Shown here: piece after piece, positions 12,503 through 38,470 of the stretch
Position numbering within the stretch: the first letter of the stretch is position 1
Layout: each line of letters begins with the position of its first letter
Virus genome (UHGV): UHGV-0188329
Reading direction: 5' to 3' (one strand)
Source of the DNA: a virus
Length of the DNA: 41,700 nucleotides
Program-made: the position numbers and the translations under genes
Notes under the pieces: model-generated
Told to the model about the DNA's origin: nothing
What the model saw: the letters and a program-made list of their open reading frames with translations, nothing else
The model's database searches: none

Positions 12503-12799
12503 CGTTTTAAGCACGGCCTTTCTGAAAGCACATCAAACCAAATACCAGACAGACAAAAATAATCACCTTATCCGCTGTGGCTACGGTGCGGTGTGCTTTG
12601 CATAAAAGAAAACCAGCGCAATGGCTGGCTTCGTGAAAGCGGGTGGCAAGAAGTTGCGCTAACAACCTCATGCCGTTTTGCCCGTGCATATCGGTCACGA
12701 ACAAATCTGATTACTAAACACAGTAGCCTGGATTTGTTCTATCAGTAATCGACCTTATTCCTAATTAAATAGAGCAAATCCCCTTATTGGGGGTAAGAC

Positions 12800-13123
12800 A
12801 TGAAGATGCCAGAAAAACATGACCTGTTAGCCGCCATTCTCGCGGCAAAGGAACAAGGCATCGGGGCAATCCTTGCGTTTGCAATGGCGTACCTTCGCGG
12901 CAGATATAATGGCGGTGCGTTTACAAAAACAGTAATCGACGCAACGATGTGCGCCATTATCGCCTGGTTCATTCGTGACCTTCTCGACTTCGCCGGACTA
13001 AGTAGCAATCTCGCTTATATAACGAGCGTGTTCATCGGCTACATCGGTACTGACTCGATTGGTTCGCTTATCAAACGCTTCGCTGCTAAAAAAGCCGGAG
13101 TAGAAGATGGTGGAAATCAATAA
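12800..13123 (+). CDS. S: Holin S (lambda-type class I, dual-start MKM)
   Basis: Translation matches lambda S over essentially its whole length, including the Met1-Lys2-Met3 dual start. Confidence 0.9.
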
Positions 13124-13583
13124 TCAACGTAAGGCGTTCCTCGATATGCTGGCGTGGTCAGAGGGAACTGATAACGGACGGCAGAAAACCAGAAATCATG
13201 GTTATGACGTCATTGTAGGAGGAGAGCTATTCACTGATTACTCCGATCACCCTCGCAAACTTGTCACGCTAAACCCCAAACTCAAATCAACAGCAGCCGG
13301 ACGTTACCAGCTTCTTTCCCGTTGGTGGGATGCCTATCGTAAGCAGCTTGGCCTGAAAGACTTCTCTCCGAAAAGCCAGGACGCTGTTGCGCTGCAGCAG
13401 ATTAAGGAGCGTGGCGCTTTACCGATGATTGATCGCGGTGATATCCGTCAGGCTATCGACCGTTGCAGCAATATCTGGGCTTCACTGCCGGGTGCTGGTT
13501 ATGGTCAGTTCGAGCATAAGGCAGACAGCCTGATTGCAAAATTCAAAGAAGCAGGCGGAACGGTCAGAGAGATTGAGGTATGA
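13107..13583 (+). CDS. R: Endolysin R (lambda-type lytic transglycosylase)
   Basis: Translation matches lambda R (158 aa); overlaps S end. Confidence 0.9.
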
Positions 13584-14017
13584 GTAGAGTAACCGCGATT
13601 ATCTCCGCTCTGGTTATCTGCATCATCGTCTGCCTGTCATGGGCTGTTAATCATTACCGTGATAATGCAATCGCCTACAAAGAGCAGCGCGATAAAGCCA
13701 CATCCATCATCGCTGATATGCAGAAGCGGCAACATGATGTAGCAGAACTCGACGCCAGATACACAAAGGAGCTTGCTGATGCTAACGCGACTATCGAAAG
13801 TCTCCGTGCTGATGTTTCTGCTGGTCGTAAGCGCCTGCAAGTCGCCGCCACCTGTACAAAGTCAACGACCGGAGCCAGCAGCATGGGCGATGGAGAAAGC
13901 CCAAGACTTACAGCAGATGCTGAACTCAATTATTACCGTCTCCGAAGTGGAATCGACAAGATAACCGCGCAGGTTAACTATCTGCAGGAATACATCAGGA
14001 CGCAATGCCTGAAATGA
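13580..14017 (+). CDS. Rz: Spanin inner-membrane subunit Rz (i-spanin)
   Basis: N-terminal TM helix [19 protein letters not shown] matches lambda Rz; C-terminal half diverged. Confidence 0.8.
13773..13964 (+). CDS. Rz1: Spanin outer-membrane lipoprotein Rz1 (o-spanin), embedded in +1 frame of Rz
   Basis: Signal peptide with lipobox-like VVSAC followed by Pro-rich segment; nested in Rz as in lambda. Confidence 0.6.
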
Positions 14018-14053
14018 TCGGGCGATGAAAACCAAAAAAAACAGGAGCAATAC

Positions 14054-14329
14054 ATGACTAAGCTTTATCACCGCATCTCAACTTTTCTCTCTGGTTGCTG
14101 GGCGTTTATCACGTCTATTTCGTTCGCCATCTTTAGTTTCGGTAGCACAGCGTGCTCGCTTAGTCGGGGTCTGTGGCGTGCTATTTCAGCACTAGCGCCG
14201 AAATTTTTACCTGAAAAGGCTGTTTGGCGAATTGTAGAGCGAATGTGTAGTGAGAGCGTTCGCGAGAAGATTAACGTATTTGGACGTCATCCTCGAAATA
14301 CAGGCGCATTGTGCAGTCCGTTACTGTAG
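14054..14329 (+). CDS. Hypothetical protein at the lysis/packaging module junction (91 aa)
   Basis: AGGAG RBS 7 nt upstream; hydrophobic N-terminus; hairpin 14338-14359 after stop; no family recognised. Confidence 0.3.
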   Translation: MTKLYHRISTFLSGCWAFITSISFAIFSFGSTACSLSRGLWRAISALAPKFLPEKAVWRIVERMCSESVREKINVFGRHPRNTGALCSPLL

Positions 14330-14691
14330 TCATTACAAAGCCCATCTACGGGTGGGCTTGATAATGAAACCGGAATTTATTCTGGGCAACCAGTTACGGC
14401 AGTGCCGCGAAACAACCCAAGCCAGAAAGTGGGGAAATAACACTGGCAGCCACTGAAAGATGAACCTCCAGCCTTATGGCAAAAAAGATTCTTTGTGGTG
14501 GCGGACTGATGGAAAGACATCGGTTATTGCAGAGACCATTCAATGAGTGGTCTCGACAATGGCTTATACCCTACACGGGATAACTTAACTGATATCCCCA
14601 CAAGCGGATAAAGAGGTCCCTCAATGTCAGGAATCTACTTTTAGTCCTAGTAATGATGAACTAGATATCAGTTGAGTCGCTTGGGTGGTGA

Positions 14692-14928
14692 TTACGATTC
14701 TGCTTCAAACTCAGAAATTAGTTGATGAACACGTTCAGTATATGATGGGTTAGAACCTAGAAACTCTTCCACTGTCTGAATGGTTTCATCACCCTCCCAT
14801 TCAAAATGGCTCACAGGTGACGAATGACCAGCCCTGACTTGGTAGGAGCCATTGTCCAATTTGTCCAGGAATATATAAGTTTCATTATCATGACCTGTAT
14901 TTCGGTAAAAAATTTGCTTTGAGTTCAT
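14692..14928 (-). CDS. Hypothetical acidic protein (78 aa) divergent from terminase small subunit gene
   Basis: GAGGA about 10 nt upstream of ATG on minus strand; only 24 bp from the terminase small subunit start. Confidence 0.4.
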   Translation of the reverse strand: MNSKQIFYRNTGHDNETYIFLDKLDNGSYQVRAGHSSPVSHFEWEGDETIQTVEEFLGSNPSYTERVHQLISEFEAES

Positions 14929-14952
14929 TAAAGAAATCCTCTAGAGAAAACT

Positions 14953-15504
14953 ATGGCACTCACCGACAAACAAGAGATGTTCTGTCGCGAGTACCTCATC
15001 GATTTAAACGCCACACAAGCGGCTATTCGGGCGGGGTACAGCGCAAAGACAGCTAACCGTACCGCATCCGAAAACCTGTCAAAACCTGACATACAATTCA
15101 GAATCGCCGAACTGAAAGCGCAACGCAATGATCTTGTTGGTATTAATGCAGAATATGTACTTAATCGCCTTATTGAAATCGACCAGATGGATGTGCTCGA
15201 CATTCTCCTGCAAAACGGTGAGCTAAAGCCCATTAAAGACTGGCCTAAGGTATGGCGCACAACGCTATCAGGAATGGATGTCGTGGAGATAGTATCCGCA
15301 GATAGCGCCGCACTTCTGAAGAAAATCAAATGGCCTGATAAGGTTAAAAACCTTGAGTTGCTCGGGCGTCATGTTTCTGTTCAGGCGTTTAAAGACAATG
15401 TCAAAAATGAAGTGACTGGTGCTGACGGAGGACCAGTCAGAACAGAAATTACCAACTTAACGCCGGAGCAGGCTGCAGAAGCGTATAAAAAAATGATGGG
15501 CTAA
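14953..15504 (+). CDS. Terminase small subunit (P27/Terminase_2-like)
   Basis: N-terminal [33 protein letters not shown] typical of this family; immediately precedes large subunit. Confidence 0.7.
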
Positions 15505-38395: not shown

Positions 38396-38470
38396 TGGTG
38401 TCCCCTGCAGGAATCGAACCTGCAATTAGCCCTTAGGAGGGGCTCGTTATATCCATTTAACTAAGAGGAC
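38396..38470 (-). tRNA. argW: tRNA-Arg (anticodon CCU), argW-type; prophage integration target
   Basis: Reverse complement reads GTCCTCTTAGTTAAATGGATATAACGAGCCCCTCCTAAGGGCTAATTGCAGGTTCGATTCCTGCAGGGGACACCA with T-loop GTTCGATTC, anticodon loop CUCCUAA and 3' CCA. Confidence 0.85.

Follow-up and report, generated by a model that had tools for sequence, protein, structure and literature searches.

Phages may carry extra genes, which are known as morons (Juhala et al. 2000, as cited in PMC4104026). The present analysis concerns the virus genome UHGV-0188329, a stretch of DNA of 41,700 nucleotides (nt) that is here called the window and whose positions serve as coordinates, and in particular the 935 bp between positions 14018 and 14952. 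In a lambdoid late operon, this interval follows the lysis cassette and precedes the packaging genes, and it is an accessory-gene, or "cargo", slot. In lambda, the same interval holds bor, which is on the minus strand and is expressed in the lysogen. In effect, the slot of the window is an ordinary one with a moron in it, and two of its parts are uncharacterized: an orphan protein family, represented by a minus-strand gene for a protein of 78 amino acids (aa) at 14692-14928, and a block with two stem-loops, H1 and H2. Like bor, the 78-aa gene is small, is located between the spanin gene Rz and the packaging genes, and is antisense to the late operon. Like morons, it is absent from a relative with the same neighbors and has a deviant base composition. 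By contrast, bor is a secreted lipoprotein, while the 78-aa protein is acidic and has neither a signal peptide nor a sequence relation to bor. In addition, morons have a promoter and a terminator of their own, while for the 78-aa gene the window offers a mere candidate promoter and no convincing terminator.

As a whole, an explanation in which four recombined units make up the interval, with an intercistronic RNA element and a bor-like gene among them, is given slightly better than even chances. The first unit would be a small membrane-protein gene in the sense of the late operon (14054-14329), and the second would be non-coding and consist of H1, a conserved core, and H2. The stem-loop would fold in the Q-antiterminated late transcript, right after a stop codon, and would act post-transcriptionally as a 3′ barrier and/or as a processing site that divides the lysis mRNA from the packaging mRNA. 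It might also be a joint for homologous gene exchange, since the same 39 nt recur 3′ of different genes. The third unit would be a cassette of low G+C content that carries the gene for the acidic, presumably cytoplasmic 78-aa protein and that displaced one or more genes of the DUF2560 type. This gene would most likely be transcribed alone, from a promoter that shares its sequence with the first codons of the terminase small-subunit gene terS, so that its transcription would be possible in the lysogen, and its product most likely binds a partner in phage-phage or phage-host conflict. The fourth unit would be terS itself.

Stem-loops between the cistrons of an mRNA are well known from the repetitive extragenic palindromic (REP) elements of E. 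coli operons and from the RNase III hairpins of T7 early mRNA. Like these, H1 and H2 are imperfect palindromes of about 40 nt that are intercistronic, repeated in the genome, and devoid of a U-tract. Furthermore, T7 signals of the R1.1 type resemble them in layout, with a lower stem, an internal loop, and an upper stem. Unlike REP elements, with which they have no sequence similarity, H1 and H2 have 15-16 bp in total and are restricted to a single slot of the lambdoid late operon, in phages of Escherichia, Salmonella, and Shigella. By analogy, they are best read as intercistronic RNA elements that may function as 3′ protection or processing signals. The genome papers of HK620 and Sf6 are also said to describe boundary sequences of lambdoid phages, which, like H1 and H2, are short conserved sequences at mosaic joints. 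Nevertheless, the Sf6 record places boundary sequence bsq7 inside Rz and marks nothing at the block, and H1 and H2 differ from such sequences in being structured, with covariation.

A hairpin at 14338-14359 and a 7-bp inverted repeat, GAGACCA-N9-TGGTCTC, at 14532-14554 had been noticed in an earlier model-made reading of the window, here called the original prediction. Both are present and, judging from their sequences, are two paralogous copies of one 39-nt stem-loop element with common flanks, internal loop, and stem register. The hairpin is the upper part of H1 (14330-14367), which reads UCAUUA-CA-AAGCCCAUC-UACG-GGUGGGCUU-GA-UAAUGA and consists of 6 bp, a 2x2 internal loop, 9 bp, and a UACG loop. 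The inverted repeat lies within H2 (14524-14562), which reads UAUUG-CA-GAGACCAUUC-AAU-GAGUGGUCUC-GA-CAAUG and consists of 5 bp, a 2x2 internal loop, 10 bp including one U·G, and an AAU loop. The full H1 stem-loop folds with -21.0 kcal/mol (z = -7.0) as plus-strand RNA and with -16.5 kcal/mol on the minus strand, and none of 200 shuffled sequences equals it; the corresponding values for H2 are -19.5 kcal/mol (z = -6.9) and -15.3 kcal/mol. Thus, both are 4-5 kcal/mol more stable as plus-strand RNA. By chance, 935 bp should contain about one 7-bp inverted repeat with a short spacer (935 x ~18 spacings / 4^7), and 23 inverted pairs were listed within the interval. Consequently, it is the full stem together with its conservation and covariation, and not the 7 bp alone, that makes the repeat significant.

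The pairing of the stems is also maintained among phages. In the set of loci that is unbiased for the inverted repeat (see below), H2 occurs in several alleles, among them I, II, and III, which differ by compensatory pairs, with G-C replaced by A-U at three positions and A-U replaced by G-C or C-G elsewhere. Across 21 distinct stem-loop variants, 97.8% of the cells are paired and 6 of the 15 pairs are altered on both sides. The covariation score of this set is 0.45, in comparison with 0.25 ± 0.02 for shuffled alignments (reached in 0 of 500) and with 0.05-0.19 when the partners are slid, although the variants were assembled by hand, include paralogous copies, and represent few independent events. 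About 46 of the 315 cells are G·U pairs, and C-to-U variants in the 5′ arm of H1 retain a G·U pair on the plus strand only. As G·U would be an A·C mismatch on the other strand, the structure appears to belong to the strand of the late operon. A covariance model, R1, agrees with this orientation, for it scores H2 with 61.8 bits and H1 with 58.9 bits on the plus strand and yields 20-23 bits on the minus strand (23.3 for H1). In the whole 41.7-kb window, R1 finds H1 and H2 and no further copy. In 100 loci, it gives 167 matches, typically two per locus, and wherever the orientation of a locus is known, they lie on the strand of the late operon. The element directly follows a stop codon in four cases, namely the 91-aa gene of the window (TAG), gene 66 of Sf6, Rz of vB_EcoM-689R2, and a gene of the comparison locus L010. 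In Sf6 (L009, 1249-1664), as in many IMG/VR loci, gene 66, which belongs to the Gp49 family, is inserted after the equivalent of 14521 and before a type II stem-loop, and its TAG abuts that stem-loop, as if the gene and its 3′ hairpin acted as one unit.

The position of G+C-rich stems directly after stop codons would also suit terminators, either leaky ones in the late operon that are read through by Q-modified polymerase or terminators of leftward transcripts, for example of the 78-aa gene. Read on the minus strand, UUUGUAAU comes after H1, and the record of phage L annotates a minus-strand terminator within the block. Nevertheless, that terminator is in the core and not at H1 or H2, the G·U pairs would become mismatches on the minus strand, and an intrinsic terminator combines a G+C-rich stem with a U-tract. 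The stems exist, but no U-tract is found on either strand, including 3′ of H1 or H2 on the plus strand, and a terminator scan reports neither stem on either strand. The terminator interpretation is thus considered improbable.

Palindromic symmetry is likewise expected of DNA sites, and the original prediction had suggested a packaging or a regulatory site. As an accessory site of pac or cos, or as the operator of a dimeric protein, the repeat and the hairpin could be symmetrical, and their arms could change jointly between alleles, as they do. However, the element is found in phages whose terminases are unrelated and which use either packaging strategy, that is, in cos phages (HK97 and HK022), in P22-like headful phages, and beside the Mu-F / portal_3-type module of the window, so the block does not appear to be a packaging site. 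In addition, one-sided changes overwhelmingly keep G·U on one strand, the element has a single orientation and abuts stop codons, and the synonymously conserved 5′ end of terS (see below) is a better pac candidate. DNA sites are therefore regarded as very improbable, and of the two suggestions it is the regulatory one that is possible, at the RNA level.

H1, the core, and H2 appear to form a widely shared non-coding block of about 300 nt. It occurs in the late operons of HK97, HK022, the mEp phages, Sf6, CUS-3, P22 and its relatives, and Shiga toxin (Stx) phages, always 3′ of the lysis genes and mostly unannotated. About 200 sequenced phages carry it, and their packaging systems are unrelated. 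It is also found in 2326 of 5426 complete E. coli genomes (43%), in up to five copies each and again mostly without annotation, while it is rare beyond Escherichia, Salmonella, and Shigella. In a scan of one genome per species, the core was confined to E. coli, Shimwellia, and a few metagenome-assembled genomes that are probably contaminated. Of the non-coding stretch between H1 and H2 (14368-14523), the first part, 14368-14395, is variable, with a 57-bp indel and alternative joints, and the core, 14396-14523, is near-invariant among phages. The nucleotide diversity of the core is 0.025, in comparison with 0.042, 0.036, and 0.120 at codon positions 1, 2, and 3 of Rz in the same loci, a comparison that is biased by the retrieval of the loci with exact anchors in or near the block. 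No Rfam family matches the block: within 13900-15100 the best E-values are 2.9-4.7, far under threshold, and the only match in the whole window is a tRNA. A description of the block was not found in literature on boundary sequences, on the prophage small RNAs AgvB/AsxR and Pas, on the epsilon34 genome, and on the Salmonella prophage transcriptome. Known prophage anti-small RNAs sit at the moron site of pR′, upstream of the lysis genes, unlike the block.

Small open reading frames (ORFs) of 30, 28, and 35 aa are present in the block. They are annotated in phage Dewey, and orf118 of phage L begins at the ATG equivalent to 14476, so that the 35-aa frame could be the N-terminus of the orf118 of ST64T and phage L and the block could encode micro-proteins. 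The variable columns are spread evenly over the codon positions (12/10/14, 11/9/7, and 6/5/8), and several variants contain stop codons, which speaks against these ORFs as coding. Moreover, they have no match in PHROGs, NCBIfam, or Pfam, the sequences ahead of their ATG codons are poor or even anti-Shine-Dalgarno, and the Prokaryotic Genome Annotation Pipeline (PGAP) annotates nothing in the block. There is, consequently, hardly any chance that micro-proteins explain it.

The main rival of the proposed RNA element is a functionless linker that was spread by homologous recombination or by gene conversion driven by the homing-type HNH and GIY-YIG endonucleases that are frequent here, the hairpins being former moron terminators. 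Mosaic joints are indeed concentrated where H1 and H2 begin and end, HNH and GIY-YIG genes are among those found in the slot, and the hairpin of the comparison locus L229 is a recombinant whose 5′ arm is of type II and whose 3′ arm is of type I. The core, which conforms to such a linker, is also the first of several points that weigh against the explanation proposed here. Its folding is ordinary (z ~ -1.2 on both strands) and informative covariation is absent, so that a structured RNA is not supported; the z of -4.9 for the whole block is due to H1 and H2. As the core has neither significant folding nor covariation, the RNA model does not account for its conservation, while its confinement to so few species leaves little diversity in which covariation could appear. 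The composition of the variant set has been mentioned, and of the two sets of loci, the first, 120 IMG/VR loci, was retrieved by a pattern search for the inverted repeat and is biased for it, so that the second set, 120 more loci retrieved via a core anchor, is the sole unbiased one in this respect. In contrast to what a linker would predict, the compensatory and the one-sided G·U changes imply selection on pairing, diversity in the core is below that at the replacement sites of Rz (with the ascertainment caveat above), and 300 nt of non-coding sequence are kept in tightly packed genomes and in 43% of E. coli. The compensatory changes argue against the linker for the stems, but not for the core, and overall it is judged unlikely, while being the strongest of the rivals.

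A more far-reaching form of the RNA interpretation would make the block a widespread cis-acting RNA module in which the stem-loop is a portable 3′ cassette boundary and recombination substrate, and the core is a leader that sets packaging versus lysis expression; this is considered doubtful. In any case, a 300-nt unannotated block with a covarying stem-loop is present in the late operons of HK97, HK022, P22-like phages, Sf6, and Stx phages. If it is true that the block governs how late mRNA is processed or shows where cassettes end, gene exchange at this hotspot would have a physical basis.

The first unit, directly upstream of H1, is a 91-aa ORF in the sense of the late operon at 14054-14329. 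As the original prediction had stated, its N-terminus is hydrophobic, with a single segment at about residues 9-32, and its ATG has AGGAG 6 nt ahead of it. The product matches phrog_34701 end to end (E = 7e-57) and has 53 homologue clusters with 55-73% identity, every one of them 90-91 aa long, in Escherichia, Enterobacter, and Citrobacter. In this family, the hydrophobic N-terminal part is variable and the C-terminal half is invariant. The gene is also found in phages HK140 and N7, while PGAP does not call it in the loci L004 and L006, and no PADLOC defense profile matches its product. Near-identical copies differ by 4 synonymous and 9 non-synonymous changes, which makes the ratio of non-synonymous to synonymous rates (dN/dS) uninformative. 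Thus, it is the conservation of diverged homologues, and not dN/dS, that identifies the ORF as a real gene for a predicted small membrane protein.

The 78-aa ORF on the opposite strand had been described as well initiated, acidic, and only 24 bp from terS, and all three properties are borne out. Its ATG has GAGGA 8 nt upstream, the protein has an isoelectric point (pI) of 4.6 and a net charge of -9, and exactly 24 nt (14929-14952) lie between its start and the ATG of terS at 14953, the two genes being head-to-head and the spacer holding the ribosome-binding sites of both. The lack of coding conservation that, according to the original prediction, would speak against a gene was not observed. 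In comparison with the 81%-identical copy in L010, 33 of 48 synonymous and 16 of 186 non-synonymous sites are changed (dN/dS = 0.05), and in deeper homologue pairs, synonymous sites are saturated while the proteins are still 54-73% identical. A homology search, which had also been suggested, uncovered a small family. There are 13 homologue clusters in a database of 5.8 billion sequences, and searching 1.84 billion representatives with a profile yielded 16 matches, of which about 12 are proteins of 64-111 aa (mostly 76-86) and the remaining ones are partial matches inside long proteins. The family shares the motif E.YIFLD..G.Y.VR.G.S...W...T...EFL..NP.Y..KV..LI.EFE. No match was found in Pfam (E <= 0.1), PHROGs, NCBIfam, or PADLOC, nor by tblastn against 50,697 phage records. 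The ORF is thus evidently a genuine and strongly constrained gene of a small orphan family.

The cassette of this gene is rare and deviant in composition. Of 5426 E. coli genomes, 12 carry it, and its G+C content is 38.8%, in comparison with 46-53% in the flanks and 49.4% in the whole window. In vB_EcoM-689R2, which has the same terminase large-subunit gene (terL) and the same C-terminal part of terS as the window, there are Rz, one hairpin, terS, and nothing more; the 78-aa gene is thus an extra gene between neighbors that are adjacent in a relative. On the grounds of position, orientation, composition, and replaceability, it is most likely a bor-like moron, and it is most likely expressed in the lysogen with a role in phage conflict. 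The more distant homologues, which do not adjoin terS, include one with 54% identity in the locus L138 (5303-6608). It lies 1 kb from a ThsB-like TIR gene (E = 2e-31) and from the candidate defense gene PDC-M50A, in an island that also holds a DUF927 / Toprim primase and YfjT.

A different role is suggested by the linkage to terS. All homologues with at least 67% identity are head-to-head with the same terS N-terminus, at 24-27 bp, while terL, the portal gene, and the lysis genes differ. Five diverged lineages keep this pairing, and the spacing is seen in L004, L005, L010, and L013. Hence, the protein could be tied to packaging and be made lytically, either to modulate the choice of pac by TerS or to shield TerS from satellites, and the distant homologue in a primase-bearing, satellite-like island would agree with this. 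However, the same terS allele is also found with unrelated minus-strand genes. In E. coli 573 (L006, 2128-2594), for instance, it is accompanied by a minus-strand gene of the YodC family (26 bp off) and DUF6953, then a hairpin, with the DUF2560 gene retained upstream. DUF6953 and the 78-aa protein have the same length and position but no evident similarity, as compared by eye only. As, in addition, distant homologues are not beside terS and a gene that runs counter to the late operon is not easily reconciled with a late function, the packaging role is viewed as rather unlikely. The bor-like moron is preferred, and the family stands out as a rare constrained orphan where lysogenic-conversion and defense genes usually sit. 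Being tightly linked to one DNA-recognition allele of terS, it is a tractable candidate for a function in phage conflict or packaging that would be new.

The remaining points on the opposing side concern this gene. A scan of both strands for promoters finds no sigma-70 consensus, and the lone candidate, an extended -10-like TGcCATAGT, extends into the start codon of terS and is half fixed by coding; its counterparts are TGCCATAAT, TGCCATAAC, and TGCCATTAT in L010, L013, and L014, respectively. In the window, a minus-strand scan finds no terminator for the gene, and its 3′ untranslated region (UTR) at 14641-14691 folds with z = -1.06, while the homologues in L010 and L014 have a terminator-like hairpin directly 3′ of the stop codon. 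The predicted fold, ββββαα, has weak and non-specific structure matches. The scores with Pur-alpha of Borrelia burgdorferi (3n8b / 3nm7), a single PUR-repeat protein, and with PC4/Whirly-like folds are in the generic range of small alpha/beta proteins. With respect to the PUR repeat and its ββββα fold, the protein has an extra helix and no family-profile match (Pfam E <= 0.1, NCBIfam), and whereas nucleic-acid binders are basic, its pI and net charge, as whole-protein values, do not indicate a basic surface. Finally, the conservation at the 5′ end of terS that could reflect a promoter could equally be due to a pac site or to a recent local recombination.

In phages of the SPP1 type, the pac site overlaps the 5′ end of a Terminase_2 gene. 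The terS gene of the window (14953-15504, plus strand) also belongs to Terminase_2 (PF03592, E = 7e-40; 137 bits, with a cut-off of 26.1), and its first 90 nt are likewise conserved beyond coding need. Codons 1-30 (14953-15042) have 93-97% DNA identity to L010 and L013, with 80-92% at third positions, in comparison with 15-67% at third positions in the rest of terS and with synonymous saturation in the neighboring 78-aa gene. This pattern suggests an embedded pac site, a control region of the divergent gene, or a recent local exchange, and an embedded promoter or control region fits the synonymous conservation of these codons. Phage matches of the vB_EcoM-606R2 type, Omnitron, SEN34, and Hafnia phage yong1 begin at 15322, at about codon 124 of terS, which indicates that the N-terminal part for DNA recognition and the C-terminal part that faces terL differ in history. 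The C-terminal part and terL are of the vB_EcoM-606R2 / SEN34 type.

The junction itself evidently reflects textbook lambdoid mosaicism, its pieces having been inherited separately. The predicted nature of the interval as a module junction and cargo hotspot is supported by the varied genes of the slot, by bor of lambda, and by the gene-less vB_EcoM-689R2. In other E. coli prophages and phages, the same interval holds genes for Rha, KilA-N, HNH, GIY-YIG, DUF2560, DUF6953, or YodC proteins, or IS3. By contrast, the claim that the lambda-like sequence ends after Rz holds only in part. Similarity to lambda itself spans 12629-13828 at 92.6% (blastn) and stops within Rz, while it is the similarity to other lambdoid Rz alleles that breaks exactly at the Rz stop, at 14018, in 81 fetched loci. 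Among 50,697 phage records searched by megablast, 14018-14598 is common to HK140 and N7 only, about 190 more records match just ~14326-14598, and 14599-14952 has no match. In the fetched IMG/VR loci, the homology edges are discrete, at 14018, 14326-31, 14379/81 (the 57-bp indel), 14389-96, 14521/23, 14570-75, 14612, and 14630.

The left joint of the 78-aa cassette lies inside 14563-14640, a stretch that comparison with L001, L002, L006, L009, and L199 identifies as the leader (14563-14623) and the truncated start of a small plus-strand gene. Identity to other phages stops at 14598 by megablast and at 14630 by blastn. The ATG equivalent to 14624 is the start of the DUF2560 / P22 orf80 gene in most phages, and in the window only MSGIYF* is left of it ahead of the cassette. 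Two adjacent segments of the right end of the block (14583-14606) have inverted counterparts, with their order exchanged, in the 3′ UTR of the 78-aa gene (14664-14688), with 93% complementarity over 14 nt and 82% over 11 nt, which may be due to chance or be a trace of the joining of the cassette.

Upstream of the interval, Rz (13580-14017, plus strand; PF03245, E = 6e-36) has a 3′ third that is another lambdoid allele. A further mosaic joint in this gene is located at 13788, where the homology of 17 loci stops. An Rz1-like ORF with the lipobox LVVSAC and a proline-rich tail is embedded in it at 13773-13964. Far downstream, at 38399-38470 on the minus strand, there is a tRNA gene (63.4 bits) with the anticodon CCU (Arg), which possibly marks the attachment-site end of the prophage.

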